A DNA stretch of 54,840 bases from Parcubacteria bacterium C7867-007 (GCA_001189195.1 LFCQ01000006.1:1-54840); one strand, 5' to 3'. Positions 3,193 through 54,094 are shown, counted from the first letter of the stretch. The notes: generated by a model not told the origin, from the letters alone. Program-made: numbers and translations.

Positions 3193-3266
3193 GCATGCGT
3201 AGCTCAGTTGGTTAGAGCTCGGAGCTTATACCTCCGCGGTCCCTGGTTCGAGTCCAGGCGCATGCA
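3193..3266 (+). tRNA. tRNA-Ile, anticodon UAU
   Basis: Cloverleaf by hand: acceptor GCATGCG/CGCATGC, D arm GCTC-AGTTGGTTA-GAGC, anticodon stem CGGAG/CTCCG with loop CTTATAC, T arm CCTGG-TTCGAGT-CCAGG, discriminator A. No encoded CCA. Confidence 0.85.
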
Positions 3267-3274
3267 CTGATTAA

Positions 3275-4109: not shown

Positions 4110-4360
4110 GTGCTACCGTATACGCAGATCGGAAATGCTGTCGCTCATATCACTGGCATGGTGCCCCACACGGGTACGGGCAGCAGAAAGGGATAAACCC
4201 TAACCAACAGCTAAGGTCCATAAATAATGGCTAAGTATTGCTTCTTCAAGCACTCCACGCGAGCGTTCTGGAAAGGCATGAGAACTAAGGAGTAAAGCCA
4301 TTTACCGAAGCTTTGGAGACACAATCTCTCGCCAGCGTTCTGTGAGACTCGTGGACGCGG
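4110..4360 (+). ncRNA. Orphan 23S rRNA (domain II)-like fragment
   Basis: No ORF. Plus-strand blocks resemble remembered E. coli 23S: AGGGATAAACCCTAACCAACAGCTAAGGTCCATAAATAATGGCTAAGT vs GGGAAACAGCCCAGACCGCCAGCUAAGGUCCCAAAGUCAUGGUUAAGU; TAAAGCCATTTACCGAAGCTTTGG vs CUAAACCAUGCACCGAAGCUGCGG; AGCGTTCTGTGAGAC vs AGCGUUCUGUAAGCC. Confidence 0.55.
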
Positions 4361-4429
4361 GTCCTCGAATCACCTCATAGACAAACGGAGAGATTTTAGT
4401 GAGCATCGCTCATGGTCTGGTACGATCCA

Positions 4430-29860: not shown

Positions 29861-30472
29861 ATGGAGAATAGCGGACCTGCAGTCCATTTCATTAACGTAG
29901 AGTATTTCTTCCGTCTACTCTACGATCTTATCTTTGGCACCCACACGGTATCAGGAGTGAATGTAAGTGTGGGGAATGTAAGCGGACTGGTTACCCTTGC
30001 TGGCCAGATCTGGCTACTGGTAAGTATTATTTCTTGGATTGCAGTATTCGCTGCCTGTTGGGCCATCATCTACTACACCACCCGCTATTGGCAGGTGCTT
30101 GCAGAAGATGACGAACGATATAAGACCGTTTCTGCAGAACAAGAACATAGAGAAACTGAGCAGTCTCGTTGGACATACATTAAACAACTTATTGAAAGTG
30201 CTCAGCAAAGTGACTGGCGTCAGGCAATTATTGAAGCAGACATTATGCTTGATGAGATACTGATTCGACATGGATACCCGGGGGAGACACTGGGTGAACG
30301 CCTTAAGGCGGGTAACCCTGCACGATTCATGACACTCAATAACGCATGGGAAGCACATAAGGTGCGAAATGATATTGCACACCAAGGATCTGCATTCCAA
30401 CTCACTAACCATATTGCATACCGTACGATCCAGAACTATGAAGCGGTGTTTAGGGAGTTTAATGAAATCTAA
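29861..30472 (+). CDS. Hypothetical membrane protein
   Basis: 203 aa. One or two N-terminal TM helices and a soluble helical C-terminal domain. No family recognised. Confidence 0.55.
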   Translation: MENSGPAVHFINVEYFFRLLYDLIFGTHTVSGVNVSVGNVSGLVTLAGQIWLLVSIISWIAVFAACWAIIYYTTRYWQVLAEDDERYKTVSAEQEHRETEQSRWTYIKQLIESAQQSDWRQAIIEADIMLDEILIRHGYPGETLGERLKAGNPARFMTLNNAWEAHKVRNDIAHQGSAFQLTNHIAYRTIQNYEAVFREFNEI

Positions 30473-30509
30473 GTTGCAATCTTCATACCTTCCTATATAA
30501 TCCCAAAAT

Positions 30510-30796
30510 AGCGGGGTAGAGGAGTGGTACCTCGGGAGGCTTGAATTATTCGGGCGTGCGTAGAAGCAATTTTACGTAAGATCATCTGCCAAATTCGGTG
30601 AAACCCTCACGTCAGAAATGACGAAAGGCAATGCCGAGCCAAGCCTGCTTCGGCAGGAAGGTGTAGAGACTAGACGGTAGACATCCCTATGGGATGAAGG
30701 CATAGTCCAGACCACAAATTCGTCCTCGGACGAAGCAACGAAAGTTGTAGCGGCAAGCATAACCTCCAGACGCCGGTTCAATTCCGGCCCCCGCAA
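30510..30796 (+). tRNA. Intron-containing tRNA, spliced anticodon CAU (Met or lysidine-Ile2)
   Basis: 5' exon (A)GCGGGG-TA-GAGG-AGTGGTA-CCTC-G-GGAGG-CT. 3' exon CATAA-CCTCC-AGAC-GCCGG-TTCAATT-CCGGC-CCCCGC(A). The joined anticodon loop is CTCATAA. A normal cloverleaf forms only after 30542-30757 is removed. Confidence 0.8.
30542..30757 (+). ncRNA. Group I intron, IC3 (tRNA-intron) type
   Basis: Core strings AAATTCGGTGAAACC, GGCAATGCCGAGCCAAGC and GAAGGTGTAGAGACTAGACGG match the remembered Azoarcus tRNA-Ile / cyanobacterial tRNA-Leu intron core. P1 gives a U-G wobble at the 5' splice site, the terminal G serves as omega-G, and P10 can form as ATAA/TTAT. Confidence 0.75.
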
Positions 30797-30804
30797 CACG
30801 ATTA

Positions 30805-30838
30805 AACACAAAAGCGCGATTACTCGCGCTTTTGTGTT
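30805..30838 (+). terminator. Rho-independent terminator after the split tRNA
   Basis: AACACAAAAGCGCG-attact-CGCGCTTTTGTGTT followed by TC. Confidence 0.75.
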
Positions 30839-30900
30839 TCTAGGCTAAATTTAAATACTGTGCTTAAGTGACTCTAGAATTCGAAACAAGGAGAATCACC

Positions 30901-31176
30901 ATGAACACAGGCAGGAAGGGTCCTGTTGCTAGGGATCTGCACGGTCTCCCCATTACTGTCGATGATCTACCCAGTCCTGATACGAGGAGATGGGTTCCAA
31001 ACCGAAAGGCCATCGTCGTGAATGCTGTTCGTGGCGGCCTGATCTCTCTGGAGGAGGTCTTGATTCGCTACAACATGACCGAACGAGAATTTCGTATCTG
31101 GGAACAGGGGCTTGAAGATGCGGGCGCAGAGGGACTTAAGACTACGAAGTTCCAAAAGCGAAAGCGGAGAGCATAG
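30901..31176 (+). CDS. SciP-like / DUF1153-family small transcriptional regulator
   Basis: 91 aa. DLPSPDTRRWVPNRKAIVVNAVRGGLISLEEVLIRYNMTEREFRIWEQ...GLKTTKFQ follows the Caulobacter SciP pattern (DLPxPxTxRWVxxRKAxVVxAVRGGLxSLEE). AAGGAG lies 7 nt upstream. Confidence 0.7.
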   Translation: MNTGRKGPVARDLHGLPITVDDLPSPDTRRWVPNRKAIVVNAVRGGLISLEEVLIRYNMTEREFRIWEQGLEDAGAEGLKTTKFQKRKRRA

Positions 31177-31200
31177 AACAACTAAAATGGCGGAAAAGAA

Positions 31201-31233
31201 AATGGCCCGGTCGTCGCAAGACGCCGGGCCATT
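31201..31233. terminator. Bidirectional terminator between the SciP-like and CtrA-like genes
   Basis: AATGGCCCGG(t)CGTC-gcaa-GACGCCGGGCCATT flanked by A-rich and T-rich tracts. Confidence 0.75.
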
Positions 31234-31258
31234 GAATTTTGCTTTTAGGGAACGCTCG

Positions 31259-32169
31259 TTAAACAGCAGTTTGTACAGGTGGTTCTTGACGCTGCGTCTC
31301 AAGAAAACTCTCAATTGCCTCCCGGATCAGCAGCGAAACTGTTGTGCCCTGGTTATCCGCGAGCTTTTTCAGTCTTGCCTTGTCCGTGGTGCGGAATGTG
31401 AGAACTTCATTCAGTTCTGTGTCCGTTGCTTCAGATTCTTCAGGGAGCTCAAGAGTTTGCGAGCGATTTTGTGCATCCCCATCAATAATCTGGTAGCCAC
31501 GCCCCCAGACAGTTTCGATGACCCGACCCGCATCCGGATGAATCTCATCGAGCTTCTTGCGGATCTTGCAGACGAAGACGTCGATGATCTTGATCTCCGC
31601 CTCGTCCTCAATGGCCGAGTACAGATTCCCAAGAATCATCTCTTTCGACTGCGTACGCCCTCGATTGGATGCGAGCAGTGAAAGAATGAGCATCTCCTTT
31701 CCGGTGAAGTGAACGAACTGACCGTTCACGCTCACCGTTTGTGTGGAGAGGTTCATGCGAATCAGAGCGTCGCCGATCTTCAACTCGCGAACGTCAAGTA
31801 CGAGACCTTTCCCTCGGCGTGTCGTTGCCCGAAGGGAAGCCGCAAGTTCTCGCGGGTTTGCCGGACTGCGGATAAAATCGTCGCCCCCATTCTCAAGGAA
31901 CGACGCACGCTGTTCCGACCATGATCCCTCCCGGTTCCCATTGGAGAGTCCGATGACCGATGTAAGCACGTTCTTGCTCCGCAGGTAGCGGACCGCGAAG
32001 ATGCCCCAATTGGTCTTGTCGAGATCGACCACGATTGCGTCGTAATCGCCATCGACAATCCATTCGTATAGGTCTTCAGGTGTCTCCACCTCATCTGTGA
32101 CCGTCAAGAATCCCTTGCCTCTCAAGAAGGCCAGGGTGGTCTCATCGACCCCACTTCAAAGATCTTCAT
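31259..32169 (-). CDS. CtrA-like OmpR-family response regulator with C-terminal RHH-like extension; 5' end frameshifted
   Basis: wHTH motif KIIDVFVCKIRKKL...IETVWGRGY (CtrA: KIIDVFICKLRKKL...IETVWGRGY). Receiver D in VVDLD. Tail LTFRTTDKARLKKLADNQGTTVSLLIREAIESFL. The SD+ATG at 32169 is out of frame with the body, which is open from 32155. The track ORF starts at TTG 32125. Confidence 0.7.
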
Positions 32170-32250
32170 TCCAGCCTCCTCTCAATGCATTCGTTGGTTG
32201 GATTACTTGAAGTAAACTGTTAAAGGTATTTTCTGTCAAATAAAAGAATT

Positions 32251-32274
32251 AGGACCCTCCTGGAGGAGGGCCCT
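32251..32274 (-). terminator. Terminator downstream of the parB-like gene
   Basis: AGGACCCTCC-tgga-GGAGGGCCCT (one mismatch), followed on the minus strand by a T-rich run. Confidence 0.6.
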
Positions 32275-32290
32275 AAACAAGATATCCTGT

Positions 32291-33208
32291 TTACTGTTTT
32301 TCGTTGATCTTGTCGCGGAGCTTCTCAAGCACGGAGATGATGGCATTGATTGTTATAGTATCGTTCTTTCGATCCTGCTCATCATCGTTGCGGTGTAGAT
32401 AGAGATCGTCGATGTCGAGGTCGTTGAGCATGCGGCCGGCTGTCGTGCGAGCACGTCCCAGGAACGAGGTGAAGACATTGTAGTCGTCGCTGGGTTTCCT
32501 GAAACGGCCGCCAGCACGATAGCCGCTGCTACCAGACCGATGTTCTATCAGTGCGCGCGTTTCCACCACACCGAGATTCCGTTCGATTGCTTCCTGCGCA
32601 ACAGTAATCCGAAGATCTGGTGCGCTTTCAGGAATTCCCCGAACGATGTCGATGGCTTGCGTCACTGTCAGTTGGGTGTCCTTCGAACGATTCGGATCCA
32701 TCAAGGTCTTCGCCTTGTCGGGCAAGGTGTTGAGCTTCAGGTAGTTCTCGACATACGTCCTCGACTTGCCACGAAGGCGCATTAGGTCTTCGATAGTTTC
32801 GCCATCTTCGCGAAGTCGATGATAGGCCGCCGCTTCGTCCAATGGCGACAGGTCTTCACGGTGAAGGTTTGCGAGAGTGGATTTCCTGAAGTGCTGCTTT
32901 AGGTCTTTCACCACCTCCACGAAAGCATCGATTATGGGCTCTTTACCTGTACGCTCGAAGATAAGTCCAAAGGCTCGGAGACGTCGTTCACCGTCGATCA
33001 GGATGAACGCGCCGGGCTCTCCCGGCTTCGTAGTCACTTTGATTGGTTGCTCCTGACCATCAGTCTCGATGCTGTCCGCAAGGGCTATGATACCCGACTC
33101 GATGAAGAAGGTCCGGGGCTGACCCTCGAACCGTTCGATGCGGCTGAACCGGATTGGCAGAGGCCTGCCAAGGTTTTCTTCAGCCACAGCTGCTGCTGCG
33201 TGTGCCAT
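32291..33208 (-). CDS. ParB/Spo0J-family (ParB N-terminal domain) protein
   Basis: 305 aa. QPIKV...LIDGERRLRAF arginine-patch motif and HTH GKSRTYVENYLKL. AAGGAG lies 5 nt upstream. No parA alongside. Confidence 0.75.
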   Translation of the reverse strand: MAHAAAAVAEENLGRPLPIRFSRIERFEGQPRTFFIESGIIALADSIETDGQEQPIKVTTKPGEPGAFILIDGERRLRAFGLIFERTGKEPIIDAFVEVVKDLKQHFRKSTLANLHREDLSPLDEAAAYHRLREDGETIEDLMRLRGKSRTYVENYLKLNTLPDKAKTLMDPNRSKDTQLTVTQAIDIVRGIPESAPDLRITVAQEAIERNLGVVETRALIEHRSGSSGYRAGGRFRKPSDDYNVFTSFLGRARTTAGRMLNDLDIDDLYLHRNDDEQDRKNDTITINAIISVLEKLRDKINEKQ

Positions 33209-33384
33209 GGTAACTCCTTGGCTAGGTGTTTGAGATCAAGGTACACAACTGGCGTGATAATGCCGCAAATCTGTAATTTAAGCAAACCGTATCCTACCAA
33301 TTATATTTCCTCGTCATTTATGGCGATCGATCCTTAAAATATTCAAATAATCGTGTCAGATTATGTTTCTTTTTCACGAGACGT

Positions 33385-33948
33385 ATGCGCCTTAATACCG
33401 TACACTTAACTCCAATGACCCCTTTCAACTCGACCGTAATCATTGTGGTTGCGCTCCTGGCCCTCTTCCTGATCAGTATTACGGTCTCTAAGTACGCTAT
33501 GCATGATAACTTCCTGCGTACGCGCTTCATCATGAGTGCATTATTTGGATTTATTGTCCTTACGCTAACCATCTCTTTCTGGAAGTTTGCCCTGATGACA
33601 CTGCCTTTCACTGTCCCTTCAATGCTTGTTGGTATTGGTCTCGGATACCTTATCGGTGTTCGTACTGAACAACAGAAGATTCTCACGCATGGCATCGAGC
33701 ACTATATGGAACGCTTTGCTCGTATTGAACACAAAGATGTGAAGAACCTCACGTGGTGGAGTCTCATTAACTTCTATTCAATTATGTGCGGTCTTATCCT
33801 GATCAACCTTATCGGTTTCACCAACGTCATCCTTCAAGGATCTCCAGGCTTTATTATCGCCACCAGTGTTGTGGGGGCAGCTTTCATTGGTTCGATCCTT
33901 CCATACCTGTACCACCTCTGGACTCTTCCTTGTGGTGAACGCTGTTAA
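33385..33948 (+). CDS. Hypothetical polytopic membrane protein
   Basis: 187 aa with 5-6 hydrophobic helices. Start uncertain (33385 or 33409). Confidence 0.5.
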   Translation: MRLNTVHLTPMTPFNSTVIIVVALLALFLISITVSKYAMHDNFLRTRFIMSALFGFIVLTLTISFWKFALMTLPFTVPSMLVGIGLGYLIGVRTEQQKILTHGIEHYMERFARIEHKDVKNLTWWSLINFYSIMCGLILINLIGFTNVILQGSPGFIIATSVVGAAFIGSILPYLYHLWTLPCGERC

Positions 33949-34784
33949 GAGAGTGCGAGGGAGATACTAAACACAACAAGGAGGATAAGTGAGTACAAGA
34001 AGGTTTTGCGTGCCCACCGTGTTTCATTTTGTACAAAGAACCCTGCAGCTGACATAAGGACCCAGACAATGGTGAGGATCGTCATGGGGATGGTGTACAT
34101 CAGACCAAGATTATTCACTAGGTACAATGCGTAGATTGCCACAGCGAAGAGAAGAGTGTATACGAGCATCAACACCTTGGTGAGAAGCATACCTTTAGAC
34201 ACCGGCATCACAGGAAGATTCGCGTTGCGATAGTCCTCAAGACGGAATATTGCTATAGCAAAGAAGTGCGTCATCTGCCACGTAACTAGTATAAGAAAGA
34301 GGAGAATTGCTGTTTCATTAACAGTGTTCACCACTGCCACATACCCCACAACAGGAGGTACTGCTCCTGCAACAGCACCAATAATGGTGCTGTGTGATGT
34401 TATGCGTTTAGCTGGCGTATAGAGCGCTATGTATGCAAACACTCCAAAGAGGGTAACGAGGAAAGTGAGTAGGTTGGTGAATAGGTAGTGGGTACCAAGA
34501 CCAACAGCTATTAGAGCAATACCAAAGATGAGAGCGGTACGAACGGGAATCTGTCCTGTGGGAATAGCACGTCCTTGAGTACGCTTCATGCGCGCATCAA
34601 TATCTCTATCAATAACGTTGTTTATCACGCACGCACCAGCGATAGAAAGCGAGAGACCAATAATAGTGGCGGCAAGAAGAGGGAAGGATACTGAGAAGCC
34701 TGCAGCAAACACAAAGGCAGCAAGCGCTGTCATCGCATTGCCGTATACCATCCCTGGCTTGGTGAGTTGGTAGTACGCGTTCAT
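33945..34784 (-). CDS. cyoE: Protoheme IX farnesyltransferase (heme O synthase)
   Basis: 279 aa. UbiA-family motif NNVIDRDIDARMKRTQGRAIPTG. Last gene of the cyo operon. Confidence 0.9.
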   Translation of the reverse strand: MNAYYQLTKPGMVYGNAMTALAAFVFAAGFSVSFPLLAATIIGLSLSIAGACVINNVIDRDIDARMKRTQGRAIPTGQIPVRTALIFGIALIAVGLGTHYLFTNLLTFLVTLFGVFAYIALYTPAKRITSHSTIIGAVAGAVPPVVGYVAVVNTVNETAILLFLILVTWQMTHFFAIAIFRLEDYRNANLPVMPVSKGMLLTKVLMLVYTLLFAVAIYALYLVNNLGLMYTIPMTILTIVWVLMSAAGFFVQNETRWARKTFLYSLILLVVFSISLALS

Positions 34785-35152
34785 TAGTGTAGTTCGTGCT
34801 CCGGTGATACCACGCCACCCTCATAGAACTCTGTAGAGCCATGCATATGAAGTTCTTCCAGGTTACTCATGATCCAAAGGGTACCCACAATAACGATCGC
34901 CATAATCACACCGGTGAGTACGAAGATAAGAAGATTCCATCGTGGCTTTGATTCACTTCCCATGTGAAGGAAGAATATGAGTTGTACGAATAACTGAATG
35001 AGTGCGGTGATAACAATTGCAGGAACTGCGAGGAGGCCCAGGGTTGGTGCAACCCAGAAGGCAAGAAGAGTGAGTCCTATGGAAAGGATAAAGCCGATCA
35101 CGTATGAGCTAAGAGTTCCGTGCGGAATGATGTCGTGAGTGGGTGTGGTCAT
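34784..35152 (-). CDS. cyoD: Cytochrome o quinol oxidase subunit IV
   Basis: Start at the internal ATG (MTTPTHDIIPHGTLSSYVIGFILS...), which overlaps the cyoC stop as ATGA. Three TM helices. Confidence 0.8.
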   Translation of the reverse strand: MTTPTHDIIPHGTLSSYVIGFILSIGLTLLAFWVAPTLGLLAVPAIVITALIQLFVQLIFFLHMGSESKPRWNLLIFVLTGVIMAIVIVGTLWIMSNLEELHMHGSTEFYEGGVVSPEHELH

Positions 35153-35718
35153 AGAGAGCCGAGTAAGTATACGAGAGAGAACAGACAGATCCACACGATG
35201 TCGAGGAAGTGCCAGAAGAGGGAGAAGTATACGATTCGCTGCATGGTCTTTTCGGTAAGGCCACGCACACCTAGATAGATAAAGAGTGCTATAAGCCAGA
35301 GAAGACCAACGGCAATGTGTAGTCCATGTGTGCCAACAAGGGTGAAGAATGCAGAGAGGAAGGCACTGGTTGCCCAACTATGTCCTTCTGCAACTAACAT
35401 ACTGAACTCGCTCAGCTCCATACCAAGGAACACAGCTCCAAGTGCGAAGGTGGCTAGAAGAGAGAGCCAGACCCCAACGCTATTCTTAGCGCGTGCCGCC
35501 AAGAGCGCTAACCCACACGTAAAACTGCTCGTAAGCAGGATAAGTGTTTCAACTAATACAAATGAGCGATCAAAGAGTTCCATACCACTCGGTCCTCCCG
35601 CTGTTTGTGTATGGAGTACTGCATATGCAGCAAACAGGGAAGCGAACAGAATACAGTCGCTCATGATGTATACCCAGAGACCAAAGTGAACCTGTTCGTG
35701 TGAGTGGTGCTTTTTCAT
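35149..35718 (-). CDS. cyoC: Cytochrome o quinol oxidase subunit III
   Basis: 189 aa with five TM helices. FGLWVYIMSDCILFASLF and FWHFLDIVWI motifs. Confidence 0.9.
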   Translation of the reverse strand: MKKHHSHEQVHFGLWVYIMSDCILFASLFAAYAVLHTQTAGGPSGMELFDRSFVLVETLILLTSSFTCGLALLAARAKNSVGVWLSLLATFALGAVFLGMELSEFSMLVAEGHSWATSAFLSAFFTLVGTHGLHIAVGLLWLIALFIYLGVRGLTEKTMQRIVYFSLFWHFLDIVWICLFSLVYLLGSL

Positions 35719-35720
35719 AG

Positions 35721-37673
35721 CTATTTTCGTAGACGTTGCTCCGTTGCTTTCACCACCTGTGCTGGCACCACATATTCAATTTCGTCATTAAAGGAACGAA
35801 GGATAATAGTGACGAATACTCCAATCAAAGAGACAGGAAGGAGCCACCAAATATGCCAGACAGTTCCAAATCCAAAGAGGAACGCAAAGGCAGCAATGAA
35901 CAGACCAACGCTACTATTCTTTGGAAGAAGAATATCTTCATAATGGGTTTCTTGTGTCTGCTTCTTTTCTTTCATCGTCCACCATGCATCCCGACCAACC
36001 ACTTTAGGGATATGTGCAAAGTTATAGAACGGAGCAGGGGATGGTACCGACCATTCCAGAGTACGGCCGTTCCAGTAATCACCCGTGCGATCGCGTCTTT
36101 GTTTTCTCTGAAGCACGCTCACAACATAGCAGAGCAATTGTACGGCAACTCCAAGGGCAATGATGCCAGCACCAACGCCTGCCAGCACTAGCAGGGGATG
36201 GAATCCACTTGCCGCTTCAACGAAGTTCACGCGGCGTGTCATTCCCATGAAGCCCAGAACATAGAGAGGAATGAATGCTGCTGCAAAGCCAACAATCCAG
36301 AACCAGTATGATACTTTGCCAAGCATCTCATTGAGACCAAAGCCAAAGATCTTTGGGAACCAATACACAAAACCGCAGAAGTATCCAAAGAGTACACCGC
36401 CGATCACCATGTTATGGAAGTGAGCCACGAGGAATAGACTATTGTGCAGTTGGAAGTCCACTGCAGGTACAGAAAGAAGTACCCCAGTCATACCCCCAAT
36501 CGTGAAGCTAAAGAGGAATCCCATGAACCAAAGCATAGGAACAGAATACTTAATGCGTCCACGGAACATGGTAAAGATCCAGTTAAATACTTTTACGCCT
36601 GTTGGAATCGCAATCACCATCGTTGCAATACCAAAGAAAGCATTCACATTTGCTCCTGCACCCATGGTGAAGAAGTGATGCACCCATACACCAAAAGAGA
36701 GGAAAACAATTGCCATAGTTGCCACCACCATGGACGTGTATCCAAACAGTCTCTTTTGTGCGAATACAGGAACAATTTCAGAGAAGATACCAAAGGCAGG
36801 AAGGATAAGAATATATACCTCTGGATGTCCCCATGCCCAGATTAGATTCACATACATCATCACGTTGCCGCCAAGATCGGTGGTGAAGAAGTGCATACCG
36901 AGTACGCGATCCAAAGAAAGCATGGCGAGGGTACCGGTGAGGATTGGGAAGGCAAAGAGCACCAGAAGCATTGAACCAAGTACCGTCCATACAAAGATTG
37001 GCATACGCATAAGGGTCATACCGGGAGCACGCTCTTTAATGATCGTCACAATGAAGTTCACCGCAGCGAGCAAGGTACCGATACCAGAGATCTGCAGTGC
37101 CCATATGTAGTAATCAACACCAACACCCGGACTGTATTCAATACCTGAGAGAGGTGGATAGGCCAACCATCCGGTTGCTGCGAATGATCCCACGACCAGT
37201 GATAGATTCACTAATACTGCACCGGTAGCAGTGAGCCAGAAGCTAATTGAGTTAAGGAGGGGAAAGGAAACATCACGGGTACCAATCATTAGTGGCAGAA
37301 TGCAGTTGATGAGACCGAACATAAATGCCATCGCCACAAAGAAGATCATGATCACTCCATGTGCAGTGAACACTTGTGCGTAGTGGTCAGGTGAGAGATA
37401 TCCCGCACCCTCTCCCACTGCCACTGCTTGCTGAGCACGCATCATGAGTGCATCGATACCTCCACGCACGAGCATGAGGCCCGCAAGAATGAGATACATG
37501 ATGCCGATCTTCTTAGCATCAAGAGTAGTGAGCCACTCGGTCCAGAGCCACTTCCAACGTTTAGTTATGGTGAGGAGGAGTATTACAGAAAGCGCACCAC
37601 CCACCACCACAATCTGTGCACCAGTCTCTACTGGACCGTGTATGAATGCTTCAGGTGTAAGAAGACCAAACAT
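35721..37673 (-). CDS. cyoB: Cytochrome o quinol oxidase subunit I (heme-copper oxidase)
   Basis: 650 aa. [24 protein letters not shown] and VAHFHNV-like motifs. Confidence 0.95.
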
Positions 37674-37674
37674 A

Positions 37675-38550
37675 TTAGTGAGGGTGCTCTGCCTTTGATG
37701 CAGGCTTGAGATAGGACTGGATGATCGCTGAGAATGGCATGGTTACGCTTCCATAATAGCGTACCGGGCCTGCGTTGCTTGGTGCTGAAAGTGCCTCATA
37801 GCTTTCTGGTGTGAGTGCAGTACCTGTTTCTTTTGCGTCTGACACCCAATTCTCAAAGTCTTCACTACTCATGGCGCGTGCCGCGAAGGTCATTTGTGCA
37901 AAGCCGTCACCACTGTAGTTTGCAGAACGTCCAGCAAATACCCCCGGCTCAGGGGAAATAAGATGTAGCTTGGTACTCATGCCAGTCATGGCGTACATTT
38001 GTCCGCCAAGTGACGGAATCCAGAATGAGTTCATAGGCGCATCCGCGGTGATACGGAATTCAATGGAGCGATCTGCCGGGAATGCCACTTCATTTACACT
38101 GGCAATTCCTTCCTCTGGATATATAAACAGCCACTTCCATGGCAGAGCCACCACCTCCACCACAACAGGAGGTTCGGAATGATTCAGTGCACGCATAGGA
38201 TCTAATTCATGAGTGCTGCTCCAGGTGAGGGCAGCAAGTACCAAAACAATTTCTAAAGGAACAGACCACCAAATTAACTCCTCCATCGCAGAGTTCTCCC
38301 AATTTGGCGTGTACTTTGCTTTTGTATTTTCTGCACGATAGTACCAACCAATGAAAATGATCAGTATGAATACCGGTATGACGACAATAAGCATTAGGAG
38401 GGTGGTACGTATCATCAGATCACGTTCCAACACAGCAATAGTCCCCGCTGGATCAAGCACAGGGAATGATCCACCACTTGCCAGTGCAGCAACAAGTACG
38501 ATGAATCCAATAACACTGAGAGCTATAAGTGCGAGGAGATAAGGCTTCAT
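37675..38550 (-). CDS. cyoA: Cytochrome o quinol oxidase subunit II (quinol type, no CuA ligands)
   Basis: 291 aa. [34 protein letters not shown] parallels E. coli CyoA [34 protein letters not shown]. The CuA Cys motif is absent. Confidence 0.9.
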
Positions 38551-42006: not shown

Positions 42007-43701
42007 ATGAAGAAAGATTATTCACAACTTAGTAAAGAGGAACTGGTAAAGCTTGTTGAAAAGCTTGAATCTCGTAAAAAATACGGGTTGATTTGGGATG
42101 AAGAAAAAGTCCAGGAAGAGTTTGAAAAAGAGGCACAGAACGCCCTACCTATCCTCAAGGAAATAAAGTCAAAAGAAATAACCGATCGTAAGCCTGCTCC
42201 TAACCACATCCTCATCGAGGGTGATAACTATCACGCTCTTTCTGTTTTGAACTTTACCCATCAGGGAAAGATTGACCTCATTTACATAGATCCTCCATAC
42301 AACACAGGTAATAAGAGCTGGAAATACAACAACGATTACGTAGAGAAAGAGGACTCATATAGGCACAGCAAGTGGATCTCTTTCATGAGCAAGCGTCTAC
42401 GGCTTGCAAAAAATCTCCTCAAAGAAGGCGGAACGTTGATGTGTGCAATCGACGAGAACGAGCAGGCGCAGCTAGGTATGCTGCTCGAAGAGATATTTCC
42501 GTATCCGACGCACGAAGTGCACTGTATTGTCATCATCCACAATCCTGGTGGCGTGCAAGGAAAGAACTTCTCCTATTCACACGAGTATGTGTATTTTGTT
42601 ATTCCAGGAGGGAAGACGGCAATTGGCTTGCAGAATAGAGACGAAAATCCAGACGTTCGTCCTCTAAGAGATGTTTCGACAGGGAACCATTTGCGAGTTG
42701 ATGCAAAAAATTGCTTCTATCCTATCTATGTTAAAGATGGAGAAATTATTGGATTTGGAGACGTTTGCCCAGACTCTTTCCATCCAAAATCTGCAAACAT
42801 ACAGAGAAAGGATGGTGTTCTTGAGATCTATCCAATCGACACACAGGGTAATGAGCGTAAATGGGTATTTGCTCGACAGACTGTTGAGTCTATTCACGGT
42901 GAGCTTTCTATAGAGTATAACCGACAGAGAAAAATCTGGGATGTGATCAGAAAGAAGACTCGTTTTACCTATAAAACTGTTTGGGATGATAAGCGTTTCA
43001 ACGCAAATATTTTTGGTACTAAATTGCTGAGTCAAATCATCGATATCAAATTCCCGTTTCCTAAATCAATGTACGCAGTCAAAGAGTGTATACAGGCTGT
43101 TATTCATTCAAAGGATGCAATTGTCCTCGATTTCTTTGCAGGATCTGGTACTACAGCACACGCTGTTCTTGATTTAAATAGTGAAGATGGCGGACAGAGA
43201 AGTTTTATTCTAACGACGAATAATGAGAGTAATATCTGCGAAGAGGTAACCTATCCTCGGGTTAAGAATATTATTAAGGGCTACACAAACCGTATTTCAG
43301 GGAAGCCTGTAGACGGCTACGGTGGTAACTTAAAATACTTCAAGACAAAGTTTGTAAAAATGTCAGCCGCTAAGGATGAATTAAATATTCGCCTTGCAAA
43401 CGAGTGTACTGAAATGCTTTGTTTGAGAGAGGGAGTGTTTGAAGAAGCAAAGAGTACTTCTGACTATAAGATTTTCAAACAAGGAGATAGAATTCTTGCC
43501 GCTTACTATTCATTAGATCGAGATGCACTAAAAGATCTCAAGAAGGATCTTGATAAGATTGAAGGTGAAAAAATCCTTTATTGCTTCACCCTCGATCCTC
43601 TGGGACTAAGTAAGAGTGATTTTATTGGCTGGAGCAAAGTGAGACTTGAACCGATTCCGCAAAAGATCCTAGATGTGTATAAACAAATTTATGAGTATTA
43701 A
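42007..43701 (+). CDS. mod: Type III restriction-modification DNA methyltransferase (Mod; beta-class N6A/N4C)
   Basis: 564 aa. Motif IV IYIDPPYNTGN at the N-terminus, motif I DFFAGSGTTAHAV at the C-terminus, and a variable region between them. Confidence 0.88.
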   Translation: MKKDYSQLSKEELVKLVEKLESRKKYGLIWDEEKVQEEFEKEAQNALPILKEIKSKEITDRKPAPNHILIEGDNYHALSVLNFTHQGKIDLIYIDPPYNTGNKSWKYNNDYVEKEDSYRHSKWISFMSKRLRLAKNLLKEGGTLMCAIDENEQAQLGMLLEEIFPYPTHEVHCIVIIHNPGGVQGKNFSYSHEYVYFVIPGGKTAIGLQNRDENPDVRPLRDVSTGNHLRVDAKNCFYPIYVKDGEIIGFGDVCPDSFHPKSANIQRKDGVLEIYPIDTQGNERKWVFARQTVESIHGELSIEYNRQRKIWDVIRKKTRFTYKTVWDDKRFNANIFGTKLLSQIIDIKFPFPKSMYAVKECIQAVIHSKDAIVLDFFAGSGTTAHAVLDLNSEDGGQRSFILTTNNESNICEEVTYPRVKNIIKGYTNRISGKPVDGYGGNLKYFKTKFVKMSAAKDELNIRLANECTEMLCLREGVFEEAKSTSDYKIFKQGDRILAAYYSLDRDALKDLKKDLDKIEGEKILYCFTLDPLGLSKSDFIGWSKVRLEPIPQKILDVYKQIYEY

Positions 43702-46015
43702 TCTTAAGCAATACCAAGAAGATGCAGTAAACCGCTTAATTGAGACGGCGGTCAAACTATTGGACTACGATGGTCCCGGTGAGGTCTGCGTATTCCAATC
43801 TCCTACAGGTAGTGGGAAGACGGCGATGGTTGCTAAATTTATCGAGGGATTAATCAAGGAACTTCCTGACGAGGATCTATGTTTCGTCTGGATTACCCTC
43901 GGAAAGGGGGATCTCCATCTCCAAAGTAGACATAGTCTCAATAAGATTTTTGGAGGAGCTCCGAGAGTTTCTCTTGTTGAAGAAGAATTTACTGGTGGGC
44001 GCGAACGTATCGTTCAAAACGAGGTTGTTGTCGCTAACTGGGAGAAGCTTCGCAACAAGGATCGTTCAGGTGATTGGAAGAATCTTTTGATGAAAGATGG
44101 TGAGAAACTTAATTTCAGGGATGTACTCGAAGAGACGAAGGAGCAGCGGAAAATAATTCTCATAATTGATGAAAGCCATGTAAACGCAGATACAGCGCGT
44201 GCTAATGAGCTCCGTGAACTTATTGGGGCAGATATTGTGCTCGAAATGAGTGCAACTCCGCGTCGTCCTCAACAGGAAATTGGGTTTGCGCGCGACTTGG
44301 CTACTGGTGGTGCTGGATACATTGTTGTTGATCCAAAGGACGTGATCGAAGAAGGAATGATTAAAAAAGAATTAATCATCAACGAAGAAATTGAAAAGAT
44401 AGCTACATCTGAAAGCGATTCGCAGCAGGTGGTGCTTGAAGCGGCATACAATAAGCGCCTAGAACTTAAAAAAGCCTTTGAGAAGGAGGGGGCACCAATA
44501 AATCCCCTAGTCCTAGTACAAATTCCCACCGCCGAAGCGGGAGAAGTAAAGATTGAAGCAGTCAAAAAATTTTTGTCCGAAAAGGGTATTACAGAGAAGA
44601 ACGGCAAGCTTGCTATTTGGCTCGCAGAACAAAAGTCAGACACGATTGATTGGATAGCCGAACCTGATAACGAGATCGAATTCCTTATTTTCAAACAAGC
44701 AATCGATACTGGCTGGGACTGCCCGCGAGCACATATCCTCGTTAAGTTCCGTGAGACCACAAGTGTGGTGTTTGAGATCCAAACTGTTGGGCGTATTTTA
44801 CGCATGCCCGAACAAAAACACTACGCAACTGAGATCCTCAATAAGGGGTACATCTACACCAACCTTAAGTCTATTGAGGTAAAGAAGGAAGAATACAACC
44901 CCAACATAATCAAGCACCTGAAGGCAGAACGAATTGAGGCATACAAGCCGATCAAGCTTAAGTCATACTACAAATCTCGTGTTGATTACGGGGACGTAAC
45001 TTCGAGTTTTGCCAAGGTATTTGCTGATGTGGCAAACCAAGAATTCACCATCAAAGGCACTAAGGTTGCTGATAACCGGAAGTCGGCTACTGCCCGCGGT
45101 ATTGATCTTGATATCAAGAAGTATCAACAGGAACTAATCGCCGATACTGCAATTGATGCCAAGGATCTTGATGACTTGAGCAAGATCAGCCCTGATGCGA
45201 TGGCTAAACTGAGTGTGGCCGCAGACGAACTCCAGGTATTTTTCGAACAATTTATTAAATCAAACCTTGGATCGTTTAGAAACGTAAAGCGTTCAATTCC
45301 AAGCGTGAAGTCTGCTATTTACCAATGGTTCAGGAAGTACCTAGGTTCTGAGGAGTGGGCAGAAGAGATCTTGCTCATCCAACGAGTGTTTTTGCATGCA
45401 AAGAATCAGGTGCTATTTAAGCGAGTTCTTGAACGGGCTATCGAGCAATACCGTATTGTGAAGGAGGCTGAGGTACGAGAGAGGGTGGAAGAGAGTGAGC
45501 AGTGGACTGACTTCGAGCTTCCTGTCGAGCAGTTCTATAACGAGCACGCTGATGAGAAAATGAAAGCGCGCAACTATGCTTACGAGCCTTGTTATCTTAA
45601 TCGTGACCGATCAAAGCCCGAAGAAGATTTTGAGGATTTCTTGAACTCAAACAGTTCAGAGGTTTTGTGGTGGTGGAAGAATGGAGAGAATAAACTCGAG
45701 TATTTTGGCATCAAATACGAGTATGAAGGACAGATTTTTACGTTCTACCCTGACTACCTTGTTCAATTCAAGGACGGCCGCCTTGGTATTTTTGAGACAA
45801 AAGATTCAGGTGATCGTGACGGCAGAACATATACCAAAGCAAAAGCGGAGGCGCTTCAGAAATACATTCTGGATTCGAAGAACAAGAAAGTGTTTGGAGG
45901 TATTGCGATCAAGAAAGGTTCTGATTGGTATCTGAATCAAGACCCTCAGTACGAGTGGTCTGATGTTGAGAGAGGGAACTGGGATAACTGGACTCTCCTG
46001 GAGAAGATAATTTAA
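43691..46015 (+). CDS. res: Type III restriction enzyme Res subunit (SF2 helicase + PD-ExK nuclease)
   Basis: SPTGSGKT, DESH, SATP and QTVGRILR helicase motifs. C-terminal YPDYLVQF...GIFETK nuclease motif. Overlaps the mod 3' end. Confidence 0.85.
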   Translation: MSINLKQYQEDAVNRLIETAVKLLDYDGPGEVCVFQSPTGSGKTAMVAKFIEGLIKELPDEDLCFVWITLGKGDLHLQSRHSLNKIFGGAPRVSLVEEEFTGGRERIVQNEVVVANWEKLRNKDRSGDWKNLLMKDGEKLNFRDVLEETKEQRKIILIIDESHVNADTARANELRELIGADIVLEMSATPRRPQQEIGFARDLATGGAGYIVVDPKDVIEEGMIKKELIINEEIEKIATSESDSQQVVLEAAYNKRLELKKAFEKEGAPINPLVLVQIPTAEAGEVKIEAVKKFLSEKGITEKNGKLAIWLAEQKSDTIDWIAEPDNEIEFLIFKQAIDTGWDCPRAHILVKFRETTSVVFEIQTVGRILRMPEQKHYATEILNKGYIYTNLKSIEVKKEEYNPNIIKHLKAERIEAYKPIKLKSYYKSRVDYGDVTSSFAKVFADVANQEFTIKGTKVADNRKSATARGIDLDIKKYQQELIADTAIDAKDLDDLSKISPDAMAKLSVAADELQVFFEQFIKSNLGSFRNVKRSIPSVKSAIYQWFRKYLGSEEWAEEILLIQRVFLHAKNQVLFKRVLERAIEQYRIVKEAEVRERVEESEQWTDFELPVEQFYNEHADEKMKARNYAYEPCYLNRDRSKPEEDFEDFLNSNSSEVLWWWKNGENKLEYFGIKYEYEGQIFTFYPDYLVQFKDGRLGIFETKDSGDRDGRTYTKAKAEALQKYILDSKNKKVFGGIAIKKGSDWYLNQDPQYEWSDVERGNWDNWTLLEKII

Positions 46016-46019
46016 TCTT

Positions 46020-46550
46020 CTTTTTACACAACTCAATTTTCCCGGTAAGGCATCCTAAAAGTTCTCGCTTCTCAAGCTCGGTGCCTTCTTGAAGGAGAAA
46101 TTTCGCATAGTTTCGTATATCGATCTGCTCTACGTTCACCTCTGTACTGCTGCCTATTAGCATTTGCTGAAATTTCTTGAAACGCTCAACCTCAGATCAA
46201 ATTTTTGATCTTGTGCCGATTTCATCAATTGAGATATCGTCAAACATCTGAGTTAGCTGACTGATTAGGCTGGTCTCGTTTATGTAGCCGCACTCGCAAT
46301 TGCGGTCTCGAACCTTTGTGCATCCGTAGTATATATGGGTGTTTGTTTGTCCGTTCTTTAACTTTTTGTACTTTTCGTCAGCTGTAATTCCTGATCCGCA
46401 CAAACCGCAGATCATCAAGCGCGCAAACGCAAAGTCTTTCTTCTCGCCTCTATGAGTATCACGCTGAGAATCCATTTTCTCCTGAACCCGTTTGAATAGC
46501 TCTGTAGAAATAATTGCTTCGTGCCTTCCAGCGGTACCATTTGCCCGCAA
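46020..46550 (-). pseudogene. Large serine recombinase remnant (C-terminal recombinase/zinc-ribbon/coiled-coil part only)
   Basis: GRHEAIISTELFKRVQ...CGLCGSGITADEKY...YYGCTKVRDRNCECGYI (zinc ribbon). Interrupted by a stop at 46197 and continues in another frame (46163 downward). The N-terminal resolvase catalytic domain is absent. Confidence 0.7.
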
Positions 46551-46560
46551 ATAAAGTAGA

Positions 46561-46594
46561 AAGTCACCAGCAGAATGTTATCTGTTGGTGACTT
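46561..46594 (-). terminator. Terminator of the minus-strand three-gene operon
   Basis: A 13-bp stem AAGTCACCAGCAG / CTGTTGGTGACTT (one G-T pair), followed on the minus strand by TTCTACTTTATTT. Confidence 0.7.
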
Positions 46595-46615
46595 GGTGTG
46601 CTTTCGTAATTGATT

Positions 46616-47332
46616 CTATCTTGGATCCGAAGCTATGAGTGCTCCGTAATCACGGCTCTCAATATCTGGCATATATTTGTTAACAACTCTCAATAAACCA
46701 ATTGGACTTCCTTTAGAATGGAATTTAAATACCGGATCAGGCTTTAAGATGTTTGGTAGTTTCAGAGAGGGTTGTTTTGGGCAGTCTTCCCAAACTCTCA
46801 ATGAAAGAAGTTTTGAATTCTCATGCGCATACCACAGAGCAATCTGGTCCTGTGAATAAGGAAGACCTCCATACATGCTTTCAAGCATAGTTAGGTACTC
46901 ATTCAGGCCATTTAGACGCGTAAAGCCAATGCATAATTTAATATTATTCACTGCCCAGATCTGCTGAGCATGAATACTCATAGCCATACCTAGTCCTGGA
47001 ACCGTAGATACTGTTGATACGCCAAAGAAAGTTTTAGCATTATCGCTATGACGACGTCGGCCATGTACCGAGTCACTGGCAATCCGTTCACTCGCTATGA
47101 AGTCTTCCGTATCTTTAGAGGAAAAATTTATAAAACGTCCAAAGTAGTATCCAGAAACTTGGCCTTTATATTCTCCGACTAGAAACAATGGTGACTGTTC
47201 TTCGTACCAGATTGCTAATTCAGAGCGTGAAAGTATAACCGCACCCTGAGATTTCCAAACCTCTGCTTCAATCTGTGCAAGGCGTTCAAGATCATTTGAG
47301 GTTACTGGACGAATATGGATTGGCGAATTCAT
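46616..47332 (-). CDS. GNAT-like acyltransferase (divergent)
   Basis: 238 aa. N-terminus IHIRPVTSNDLERLAQIE and a possible motif-A-like VPGLGMAMSI. Assignment from pattern only. Confidence 0.45.
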   Translation of the reverse strand: MNSPIHIRPVTSNDLERLAQIEAEVWKSQGAVILSRSELAIWYEEQSPLFLVGEYKGQVSGYYFGRFINFSSKDTEDFIASERIASDSVHGRRRHSDNAKTFFGVSTVSTVPGLGMAMSIHAQQIWAVNNIKLCIGFTRLNGLNEYLTMLESMYGGLPYSQDQIALWYAHENSKLLSLRVWEDCPKQPSLKLPNILKPDPVFKFHSKGSPIGLLRVVNKYMPDIESRDYGALIASDPR

Positions 47333-47358
47333 TTACGTGCACCCTAAGTTGATTAAGA

Positions 47359-47760
47359 TCATTCTGACCTAAACCTTGCTGGTGAGGTCAATCTATTAAA
47401 GTTTCTACCACGAACAAGTGTTTGTGTCTCGAAGAATTCAACTTGGAATGCTTTTTGTAAAAGAGAAGCCGCGAGCTCTGTATTAAAATCTTTGCAAGAA
47501 TATATATCAATCGTCACAAAACCCCTCTCGCTGTATGTATGTATGCTAATGTGAGACTCCATAATAAAAGTAAAGCCAGATATTCCTGCTATACCTGGTT
47601 CGTCTACAGAGACAATATGAGGCTTGCCTAGTGCGCGCATTCCTATCGCAGGAGGTAAATCTTGAAGCAGTTTGTATAAAAAGTCTTTATTGTAAGTTAT
47701 TTCCGTTGGGGAACCATAGCCATCAAAAGTGAGTAAAAGTCCGTATGGAATTTCAGACAT
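47359..47760 (-). CDS. Pyruvoyl-dependent S-adenosylmethionine decarboxylase-like proenzyme (SpeH class)
   Basis: GISGFTFIMESHISIHTYSERGFVTIDIYSCKDF parallels B. subtilis SpeD [33 protein letters not shown], including the self-cleavage ES site. Start placed at the ATG just after the upstream stop. Confidence 0.75.
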   Translation of the reverse strand: MSEIPYGLLLTFDGYGSPTEITYNKDFLYKLLQDLPPAIGMRALGKPHIVSVDEPGIAGISGFTFIMESHISIHTYSERGFVTIDIYSCKDFNTELAASLLQKAFQVEFFETQTLVRGRNFNRLTSPARFRSE

Positions 47761-47762
47761 AT

Positions 47763-48455
47763 TTATTTTCTTATTACTGGAACCATAAGTGTGTTGCTGT
47801 TCCAATATTTACAGTTTAACGGAGGTTCAACATCACAAATAGATTTGTCAATTTGTTTAAATCCTGCAGCACGTAATTTTTCTGTATGTTCATCACTGAA
47901 ATCTTGAATTTCGTCTGAATAATATGTTAAGACTCCACCTGAAACCAATAACCTATATGCATCAGAAAAGAAAGAAAAATGATTCTTATGAATTTCTTTT
48001 TCTGAGAGTGGATATGTATCAAATAATATTCCATTAATTGAATTATCTGGAATATTAGTAATACATTCTTCCCAAAAACCAAAAATAGTATCAGTTGTTA
48101 CTTTTGAATTACGACTAAAATCTAAAAGACGCTCATACACATCTCTATTTGCTTCGATAATTATATGCTTATCAATATGCTCTTTTTGAATATATGACGC
48201 TGATATACCCATTCCATAGCCCACCTCTAAAATAATGCCACCTTGCGAGCAAGCAACCTTTGCAAGTTGCTGCATGTAATTATCTTCCCAGTCCTCCATG
48301 ACTGGATGTCCTTGTATTTGAAGTGTGTGATCATCAAAAATGGCAGATGAATCCTTCCAAGTTTCTCTTTCTTTAAAGCCAATAGTAATGCGAGATTCAA
48401 CGGTATCTCTTTTTGACGATAAATCTTCTTTATTGCTAATCGCTAAATTCGGCAT
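47763..48455 (-). CDS. Guanidinoacetate N-methyltransferase (GAMT/RMT2)-family methyltransferase-like protein
   Basis: ILEVGYGMGISAS (SAM motif I), GILFDTYPLSEKE, LLVSGGVLTYYS and PPLNCKYW parallel remembered human GAMT VLEVGFGMAIAAS, GILYDTYPLSEE, LLKPGGVLTYCN and PPADCRYY. Confidence 0.7.
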   Translation of the reverse strand: MPNLAISNKEDLSSKRDTVESRITIGFKERETWKDSSAIFDDHTLQIQGHPVMEDWEDNYMQQLAKVACSQGGIILEVGYGMGISASYIQKEHIDKHIIIEANRDVYERLLDFSRNSKVTTDTIFGFWEECITNIPDNSINGILFDTYPLSEKEIHKNHFSFFSDAYRLLVSGGVLTYYSDEIQDFSDEHTEKLRAAGFKQIDKSICDVEPPLNCKYWNSNTLMVPVIRK

Positions 48456-48476
48456 CTTTAGTTAAATTAAATTTTC

Positions 48477-48968
48477 TTATTTATTTAGTTTATGATGCAC
48501 CACAACCCGCCACTCTCTCCAAATGAAATACATCACCACAATATCAAAGATGGTTATCGCAATAACCGCTAATGAACCCTGCGTGGCAATTTGATAAAAC
48601 TGATACACCAAGAATAGTGAAAGTACGATAAGGGATGCTGGATACGCCCACAACCAATTCTTTAGAAGGGCACCAATAAGTACGCTCTTAATAAGTCCAC
48701 GAGAAAGCAGATACACTGCAAGAAATACTGCTGTACCTGCGCCATACGCTCCAGCTTCCTCAACTAAGTGCTCGTGGATGAAAGGGAAAGGGGCTGTGGC
48801 ATCAATAAGCATGGTGAGTAGGGAAAGAAACAGACTCACCGGAATAATGAGGATGATAATGCCCACAATCACCTCTGCAACCGATATCGCACCCTTTAAA
48901 AGGACGCTAATAAGGAAGAATTCGTAGATCTGTTTCTCCTCTGCGGGGGTCTCAACATGCGGCTCCAT
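48477..48968 (-). CDS. DUF2127-like membrane protein
   Basis: 163 aa with four TM helices. Weak family call. Confidence 0.45.
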   Translation of the reverse strand: MEPHVETPAEEKQIYEFFLISVLLKGAISVAEVIVGIIILIIPVSLFLSLLTMLIDATAPFPFIHEHLVEEAGAYGAGTAVFLAVYLLSRGLIKSVLIGALLKNWLWAYPASLIVLSLFLVYQFYQIATQGSLAVIAITIFDIVVMYFIWREWRVVVHHKLNK

Positions 48969-54017: not shown

Positions 54018-54094
54018 GCCGGCGTAGCTCAGCTGGTTAGAGCGTAGGAATCATAACCCTAAGGTCGCAGGATCGTCCCCTGCCGCCGGCACCA
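54018..54094 (+). tRNA. tRNA with CAU anticodon (elongator Met or Ile2), CCA encoded
   Basis: Acceptor GCCGGCG/CGCCGGC, D arm GCTC-AGCTGGTTA-GAGC, anticodon loop ATCATAA, T arm GCAGG-ATCGTCC-CCTGC, then A-CCA. Confidence 0.8.

Follow-up and report, generated by a model that had tools for sequence, protein, structure and literature searches.

The 54.8-kb stretch of DNA analysed here (LFCQ01000006.1, positions 1-54,840; hereafter the window) contains, at positions 30510-30796, what is very probably the initiator tRNA(fMet) gene of a probable member of the Saccharibacteria, split between U33 and C34 by a 216-nucleotide (nt) group I intron of class fMet.2Ug (subgroup IC3) without an endonuclease gene. 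Membership of this intron family, the intron boundaries, a conserved and covarying structure, a valid tRNA upon ligation and the occurrence of intron-less alleles in relatives are directly supported, and we infer that the intron self-splices and that the locus is the organism's working initiator gene. The element is an ordinary further example of a long-known intron type, common in bacteria of the candidate phyla radiation (CPR; also called Patescibacteria), and it brings no change to the current understanding of group I introns. It illustrates how widely the classical cyanobacterial tRNA-fMet intron family extends through these bacteria, with filled and empty alleles at one conserved locus. 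Its practical value lies in annotation: since standard tRNA finders miss split genes of this kind, an unannotated genome that carries one seems to lack an initiator tRNA.

The split gene, its boundaries and its identity

The gene and its parts are as follows.

30510-30796, plus strand: split tRNA-fMet gene, exons 30510-30541 and 30758-30796 with a 216-nt intron between them
30510-30541, plus strand: 5' exon, tRNA positions 1-33 (5' strand of the acceptor stem, D arm, 5' strand of the anticodon stem, C32, U33); from ARAGORN on the spliced sequence and the alignment with contig L211 (see below)
30542-30757, plus strand: group I intron, 216 nt, fMet.2Ug class, IC3-like, without an open reading frame (ORF) or homing endonuclease gene; from Rfam RF00028, alignment, covariation and the L211 empty site
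30758-30796, plus strand: 3' exon, C34, A35 and U36 through to A72 and the discriminator A73, CCA not encoded; from ARAGORN, L211 and exon comparison

The original prediction, that a group I intron of 216 nt splits a tRNA(CAU) gene here, is upheld by the Rfam match, by the clean cloverleaf obtained on joining the exons and by an empty site in a related contig. Its outer limits, 30510 and 30796, also stand, but the tRNA halves that it quoted, 30511-30541 and 30758-30795, are each one base short, having omitted A30510 and the discriminator A30796. The complete 5' exon is AGCGGGGTAGAGGAGTGGTACCTCGGGAGGCT (30510-30541), ending GGAGGCT at 30541, and the complete 3' exon is CATAACCTCCAGACGCCGGTTCAATTCCGGCCCCCGCAA (30758-30796), beginning CATAACC at 30758.

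Independent evidence for the boundaries comes from relatives that lack the intron. When metagenome contigs were scanned for the uninterrupted anticodon arm CCTCGGGAGGCTCATAACCTCCAGA, at least 120 matches were obtained. One of these contigs, L211, is collinear with the window from ligA via gatA and the tRNA to the cyo operon (82% amino-acid identity in cyoB). Window positions 30508-30541 align with positions 4290-4323 of its reverse complement, and 30758-30817 align with 4324-4380. The two blocks abut in L211, which is thus an exact empty-site allele and fixes the intron, independently, at precisely 30542-30757. Uninterrupted tRNA-fMet genes on at least 29 metagenome contigs differ from the ligated exons of the window at 2 of 71 positions.

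A search with the Rfam model Intron_gpI (RF00028), which the original prediction had suggested, gave a single match in the window, at 30533-30750 (plus strand), spanning the full model (1-253) with 51.0 bits (gathering score 50) and an E value of 4.2e-10. The minimum free energy (MFE) of the intron is -70.3 kcal/mol (z = -3.5), and none of 200 shuffled sequences folded as well. The Rfam Intron_gpI seeds include no bacterial sequence (Williams 2020, bioRxiv 10.1101/2020.01.27.920355). To the idea that tRNA halves and Rfam match are a chance resemblance, with no intron present, we give next to no credence: the score is barely over threshold, as that idea would have it, but the E value speaks against it, as do the homologs, over 100 in number, that occupy this very site of the gene, and it is refuted by the exact empty site in L211 together with the strong covariation described below.

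With default settings, ARAGORN called three other tRNAs on the unspliced window and none at 30510-30796. Once the exons were joined in silico (30541|30758), they folded into a clean cloverleaf that the program called as tRNA-Met(CAT) with its start at 30510. In intron mode it instead reported a tRNA-Ser(UGA), a spurious call in which the intron is forced to the archaeal/eukaryal 37/38 position. We rejected this call because only the 33/34 junction joins U(-1), omega-G and the 7-nt loop CUCAUAA, and because that junction is the one seen in L211. An antisense ORF at 30572-30811 (79 aa, TTG start) overlies the ribozyme core and was disregarded.

Bacterial initiator tRNAs are marked by a non-Watson-Crick position 1:72 and by A11:U24. 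The ligated tRNA would carry the anticodon CAU in the loop CUCAUAA, an A1 x A72 mismatch, and a D stem GAGG/CCUC that gives A11:U24. On the last two of these features we conclude that the split gene most probably encodes the initiator, which answers the question of initiator, elongator or Ile2 identity that the original prediction had referred to the spliced sequence. The E. coli initiator type has C1 x A72 at this position, and in relatives position 1 is A, C or U; by eye, the ligated tRNA resembles E. coli tRNA-fMet. The other CAU tRNA of the window, at 54018-54094, has G1:C72 and C11:G24 and so is of elongator type, not an initiator.

In this second tRNA-Met(CAU) the T-loop, AUCGUCC with A at position 54, is unusual, and the anticodon stem holds an A31.C39 mismatch. 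The window also contains a tRNA-Ile(UAU), at 3193-3267 (68 bits); with it the organism may need no lysidine-modified tRNA-Ile2(CAU) to read AUA, which fits the two CAU tRNAs of the window being initiator and elongator Met.

Intron structure and predicted splicing

Relatives of the intron were collected with a pattern composed of the J6/7-P7 core, the 3' strand of P7 and the start of the 3' exon. Together with the window, 72 non-identical short copies were aligned with MAFFT (alignment A1, 73 sequences), and covariation was judged against column shuffles (n=500) and slid pairing partners. All group I elements from P1 to P9 can be assigned in the window, and every core helix can form.

30539-30555, plus strand: P1, exon GCU and intron UGA (30539-30544) with the internal guide UCGGGC (30550-30555), L1 AUUAU; from sequence and A1
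30557-30578, plus strand: P2 hairpin, 9 bp, GNRA tetraloop GCAA (30566-30569); from the MFE fold
30585-30590, plus strand: P3 5' strand UCUGCC, pairing with 30676-30681; 100% paired, both-sided changes in 4 of 6 pairs
30595-30637, plus strand: P4 (30595-30599 / 30633-30637) around J4/5, P5 and a P5a hairpin with GAAA loop; P4 100% paired, P5 94%
30638-30662, plus strand: P6 (GCC/GGU) and P6a hairpin with UUCG loop; P6 97% paired, P6a 89%, with covariation in 5 of 5 pairs
30666-30672, plus strand: P7 5' strand, G-(bulged A)-GACUA, pairing with 30703-30708 (UAGUCC), predicted guanosine-binding helix; 100% paired
30676-30681, plus strand: P3 3' strand GGUAGA; from covariation
30682-30696, plus strand: P8 hairpin, 6 bp, UAU loop; 93% paired, covariation in 6 of 6 pairs
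30697-30708, plus strand: J8/7 AAGGCA and P7 3' strand UAGUCC; A169, A171, G172, T173, C174 and C175 invariant
30712-30753, plus strand: P9 (CCAC/GCGG, one A.C), P9a hairpin and P9b hairpin with GAAA tetraloop; from compensatory changes
30757, plus strand: omega-G, last intron nucleotide; read directly, column G224 of A1

At each of the 94 columns of A1 that are at least 90% conserved among the other 72 sequences, the window carries the majority base. On the proposed structure 88.5% of cells are paired, as against 77.2% in column shuffles and 31-48% with slid partners; both-sided changes occur at 48 of 67 pairs, and none of the 500 shuffles reaches the observed values. This covariation supports the proposed helices P3-P9.

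P1 is as the original prediction described it, with GCT|TGA paired to TCGGGC and a wobble, U33(30541).G(30553), exactly at the 5' splice site. Its G-C, its C-G and the splice-site U.G are invariant in 72 of 72 homologs. For P2, G33, A35 and A36 of the loop are invariant or nearly so, but the helix is only 45% paired in A1, its stem columns being misaligned; since MAFFT shifted its register, P2 is assigned from its conserved GNRA loop and from folds of the single sequence, not from covariation. The closing pair of P5 (30603/30629; A1 columns 214/271) is G.U in 56 sequences and A.C in 10, all 10 of them CPR-type and the window among them, an isosteric wobble swap, which suggests that the geometry of the pair, and not its Watson-Crick stability, is under selection. 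In P7 five pairs are invariant across the 73 sequences and the outermost alternates (AU 33, UA 21, GC 15, CG 4); the helix would be expected to bind guanosine. P9, P9a and P9b are paired in 96%, 86% and 98%, respectively. The intron ends, as had been claimed, in G (G30757); the invariance of this omega-G among homologs is by construction, because the scan pattern required it.

A pairing of ATAA in the 3' exon with TTAT in L1 had also been put forward as P10. AUAA (30759-30762) can be drawn against UUAU (30546-30549) if the register is shifted. The canonical register is lost because the window intron begins with U (U.G in the P1 extension), where 62 of the 72 homologs have C. L1 is CAA in the closest relatives listed (L033, L046 and L055), where a P10 of the AUAA/UUAU type is impossible. 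This pairing would therefore seem not to be a conserved element, and it should not count as evidence. Cyanobacterial copies have a CAUA/UAUG P10 in the canonical register.

Candidate transcription signals flank the gene.

30474-30501, plus strand: sigma-70-like promoter TTGCAA-16 nt-TATAAT, matching 10 of 12 consensus positions and ending 9 nt before the tRNA 5' end
30804-30839, no strand assigned: terminator-like hairpin, a perfect inverted repeat of 16 bp around a 4-nt loop, with the T-rich TTTTGTGTTT after it; from sequence

The consensus match suggests that the former would serve as promoter. The hairpin has weak matches to the terminator regions of small RNAs, and was not among the calls of a terminator scan of the plus strand. 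From its own promoter the gene would yield a precursor transcript of ~290 nt, in which the intron would fold into the P1-P9 group I core. Exogenous guanosine, held in the P7 pocket, would attack the phosphate after U33, marked by the U.G wobble of P1. Omega-G (30757) would then occupy the P7 pocket, the free 3'-OH of U33 would attack the 3' splice site, and exon ligation would leave a 71-nt tRNA with the anticodon loop CUCAUAA.

Several points weigh against a functional split initiator gene. The RF00028 score lies only 1 bit over the gathering threshold, the canonical P10 is absent or weak, and there is an A.C mismatch in P9 and an A.C closing pair in P5. The anticodon stem GGAGG/CCUCC (A29:U41, G30:C40, G31:C39) has two of the three consecutive G:C pairs, at 29-31:39-41, that bacterial initiators typically show. 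An independent assembly that is identical to the window (L002, a Logan SRR2043728 contig) stops at 30536, 5 nt before the intron. Splicing and expression are predicted from the DNA sequence, and with 54.8 kb of the genome covered a second initiator gene may lie elsewhere. The break in L002 could mean that strains with and without the intron coexist or that the downstream segment varies. As for the anticodon stem, two G:C pairs are also found in many CPR initiator-type genes (GGAGG, CAAGG, CCAGG), and the same stem occurs in at least 120 uninterrupted metagenome copies; the missing third pair looks like a trait of the lineage and not like evidence against initiator identity.

Some of these points would be expected if the locus were a tRNA pseudogene with a decayed, splicing-dead intron, while another initiator tRNA, encoded without interruption at some other place in the genome, did the work: the weak P10, the A.C mismatches in P5 and P9 and the 54.8 kb covered, to which may be added that uninterrupted alleles are common in related organisms. 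We nevertheless consider decay quite improbable. The consensus base is kept at 94 of 94 highly conserved columns and all core helices can form; the A.C of P5 replaces G.U in 10 homologs and is an isosteric swap, not decay; the exons are identical at 69 of 71 positions to the uninterrupted genes of relatives; promoter-like and terminator-like signals are intact; and the 54.8-kb window holds no other initiator-like tRNA. Moreover, CPR genomes usually have single-copy tRNA genes.

Relatives, descent and neighbouring genes

A scan of species-representative genomes with a core-plus-3'-exon pattern gave at least 120 matching loci, and splicing at CU|CAUAA yields a tRNA(CAT) for 106 of the 120 listed. 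Most of the listed split tRNAs are initiator-type; a second group resembles elongator Met or Ile2. Among the matches listed are ~30 CPR/Patescibacteria entries, at least 9 of them labelled Saccharibacteria, as well as cyanobacteria (Nostoc, Oscillatoria and others), Nitrospirales, Saprospiraceae, Rhodothermales, Chloroflexota, Planctomycetia, Omnitrophota and proteobacteria. The original prediction had regarded a tRNA-borne intron as unusual in CPR bacteria, a view that these ~30 entries contradict, as does the frequency of 0.49 per genome in unnamed phyla (Williams 2020).

The nearest intron among the matches listed belongs to an uncultured Candidatus Saccharibacteria (L033, CAYITJ010000002.1), with 80.8% identity by BLAST and 85% over aligned columns; next come L046 and L055 (83% and 78% over aligned columns). 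The exons of all three are nearly identical to those of the window. Gene order is also shared: ligA-gatC-gatA-203-aa ORF-tRNA is common to the window, L046 and L055, and L033, which reaches back only into gatA, has gatA-203-aa ORF-tRNA. GatA is 64-65% identical to that of the window in the three loci, and LigA is 64% identical in L046. Because the nearest introns, the exons, the gene order and GatA/LigA all match such loci, the window, which belongs to a metagenome contig (JGI 3300001199), probably derives from a Saccharibacteria genome. The CPR host assumed in the original prediction is borne out to this extent, the nearest intron loci being labelled Saccharibacteria or syntenic.

The 203-aa ORF (29861-30472) lies between gatA and the tRNA-fMet gene and has no Pfam match. 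No fewer than 19 intron-bearing CPR loci have it beside the tRNA, and so do 94 of the 120 listed contigs that lack the intron; it is thus a conserved CPR gene not linked to the presence of the intron. Its position directly upstream of the tRNA bears on a further reading, namely that the group I intron is genuine but depends in vivo on a host protein, a chaperone or maturase-like factor, and does not self-splice efficiently. In its favour are a P10 that is weak or lacking and a short P8 (6 bp, 3-nt loop), owing to which the L2-P8 tertiary contact known from the Azoarcus intron may be weaker here. Yet the occurrence of the ORF beside so many intron-less alleles argues against a dedicated role, the GNRA loops L2 (GCAA), L5a (GAAA) and L9b (GAAA) are present for tertiary contacts, and the small IC3 tRNA introns of Azoarcus, Anabaena and Synechocystis self-splice in vitro. 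We regard dependence on a host protein as very unlikely and efficient self-splicing as the preferred reading.

The intron of the window (30542-30757) contains no ORF and no homing endonuclease gene. At least 28 homologs, however, have introns of 500-800 nt, and 13 of these 28 long introns contain an ORF of at least 80 codons. In 11 of the 13 the ORF has 147-185 codons and starts in L1 (L017, L027, L028, L038, L064, L065, L067, L077, L093, L101 and L106; introns of 635-662 nt). The hosts of these 11 introns are Patescibacteria, Nitrospiria, Chloroflexota, Planctomycetia, Saprospiraceae and gammaproteobacteria. The one ORF tested, that of L017 (Patescibacteria), is a clear homolog of I-Ssp6803I (PDB 2OST, E 1e-51), a homing endonuclease of the PD-(D/E)XK type. 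On account of this homology the intron family appears to be mobile, with the window copy a putative endonuclease-less derivative, and the window intron probably descends from a mobile family whose longer members carry an I-Ssp6803I-type endonuclease. That filled and empty alleles occur at one locus, and that versions with and without this endonuclease coexist, agrees with the usual cycle, in which invasion is followed by loss of the endonuclease and of the intron.

Relatives that lack the intron lie no farther from the window than those that bear it, with GatA up to 69% identical, which means that the intron is present or absent at one conserved locus. Across 16 CPR loci with the intron, the higher the identity of GatA to that of the window, the higher also that of the intron (Spearman 0.62, p 0.01), a rough measure on non-independent data. 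Vertical descent with losses would fit these observations better than frequent recent transfer, and the window intron presumably persists by vertical descent with occasional loss.

A further role can be imagined for it. If the host is a nucleotide-auxotrophic CPR bacterium, its sole initiator tRNA may mature via a guanosine-dependent ribozyme, and the intron might be kept as a gate that ties initiation capacity to the supply of guanosine nucleotides. If true, this would explain endonuclease-free persistence at one syntenic locus across several CPR classes, with divergence roughly in step with gatA; we put it forward as a long shot.

A foreign island had been claimed to begin right after the gene. 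What remains of this claim is a variable segment that does start there.

30818-33448: segment of ~2.6 kb absent from L211, which has 87 nt between the tRNA region and the homolog of 33449 onward

The segment begins just after the terminator-like hairpin of the tRNA and holds genes for a DUF1153 protein, for a regulator of OmpR type whose receiver domain gives a poor match and for a ParB-like protein, besides a 125-aa ORF. Next come cyoE and the cyo operon, the latter conserved beyond 33448 in L211. Its G+C content (0.47-0.53) is not distinctive. A Pfam scan of 20 larger ORFs between 24.9 and 53.9 kb revealed no integrase or transposase, and a search of the whole window for a second copy of the tRNA 3' end (an att-like repeat, up to 3 mismatches) found only the gene itself. 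The notion of a tRNA-integrated island was dropped on these two counts, which leaves an indel of ~2.6 kb.

Farther downstream, a cytochrome bo3-type quinol oxidase operon (cyoA, cyoB, a COX4_pro subunit and a UbiA/heme O synthase) occupies 33945-38550. The region 42007-48968, where several ORFs that match nothing in Pfam accompany type III restriction-modification genes (N6/N4 DNA methylase, ResIII helicase), lies in the stretch of lowest G+C in the window (0.38-0.45, as against ~0.48 elsewhere) and may be acquired DNA.

Comparison with known tRNA introns

Four classical classes of bacterial tRNA group I introns have been distinguished, Leu.3Ug, Arg.5Ug, fMet.2Ug and Ile2.5Ug, all catalogued as IC3 in GISSD (Williams 2020). 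In the numbering of that study the fMet.2Ug site is CU|CAUAA, and its survey of ~80,000 genomes yielded 5292 tRNA group I introns, most frequent in cyanobacteria (0.69 per genome) and then in metagenomic assemblies of unnamed phyla, to which the value given above applies. The tRNAscan-SE 2.0 paper explains by group I introns why 36 genes for fMet or Ile2 seemed to be missing, cites the tRNA-fMet introns of Synechocystis and Gloeobacter, and states that the program was not designed for group I intron detection. tRNAs with group I introns have also been noted in genomes circularised from metagenomes (Lui et al. 2021). Full-text literature searches yielded no dedicated study of the tRNA group I introns of CPR bacteria, with mentions only in Williams 2020 and Lui et al. 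2021. Earlier work thus already records the insertion site, the host gene, the subgroup and the presence of such introns in candidate phyla.

Insertion after the second nucleotide of the anticodon loop, with U at -1 and G at omega, places the window intron, as read from its sequence, in the fMet.2Ug class. The original prediction had taken insertion after U33 to be a site different from those of the Azoarcus and cyanobacterial introns; it does differ from Azoarcus, but it is the classical cyanobacterial fMet.2Ug site, occupied at the same place in Nostoc and other cyanobacteria. The cyanobacterial tRNA-fMet group I intron was reportedly described by Biniszkiewicz and colleagues in 1994, from Synechocystis PCC 6803, Dermocarpa, Scytonema and Gloeobacter. 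The window intron shares with it the initiator tRNA as host, the CU|CAUAA site between U33 and C34, the U.G wobble and omega-G. Its identity to the seed Tpc1.fMet.2Ug is 74%, and the copies of Nostoc, Oscillatoria and other cyanobacteria have a homologous P3-P9 core, within the alignment in which the window keeps all 94 conserved columns. The differences lie in the host, here a CPR bacterium, and in the periphery: in the copies of cyanobacteria and Nitrospirales a long hairpin is inserted in L1 and P5 is short, whereas the window and other CPR copies have an L1 of 3-5 nt and an extra P5a hairpin. CPR copies thereby form a recognisable variant within the fMet.2Ug family. The Synechocystis copy, at 655 nt, carries the I-Ssp6803I gene, whereas that of the window, at 216 nt, has no ORF.

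The relation to the Azoarcus and cyanobacterial IC3 introns that the original prediction drew from core motifs is confirmed by 72.5% identity to the Azoarcus-type seed over 182 aligned nt. The tRNA-Ile(CAU) intron of Azoarcus sp. BH72 (Ile2.5Ug), for which a crystal structure is known, has a similarly small IC3 architecture of ~200 nt. Its J3/4-P4, J6/7-P7 and J8/7 are nearly identical to those of the window (CAAAUUCGG.GAAACC, GCAA.GCCGAGCCAAGC, GAAGGUGUAGAGACUAGACGG, GAAGGCAUAGUCCAG), and the helix-for-helix match to this seed, with no P2.1, no P5abc-type extension and a compact P9, points to subgroup IC3 for the window intron. It is inserted after U36 (position 5) of tRNA Ile2, whereas the window intron follows U33 (position 2) of tRNA fMet, so the internal guide sequences differ; P8 and P9 differ as well. 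Closest among the matches listed are other Saccharibacteria/Patescibacteria copies (such as L033, L046, L055 and L062), which share the gene, the site, the flanking gene order and nearly identical exons; their introns, of 214-226 nt, are 73-85% identical to that of the window over aligned columns and differ from it in sequence only.

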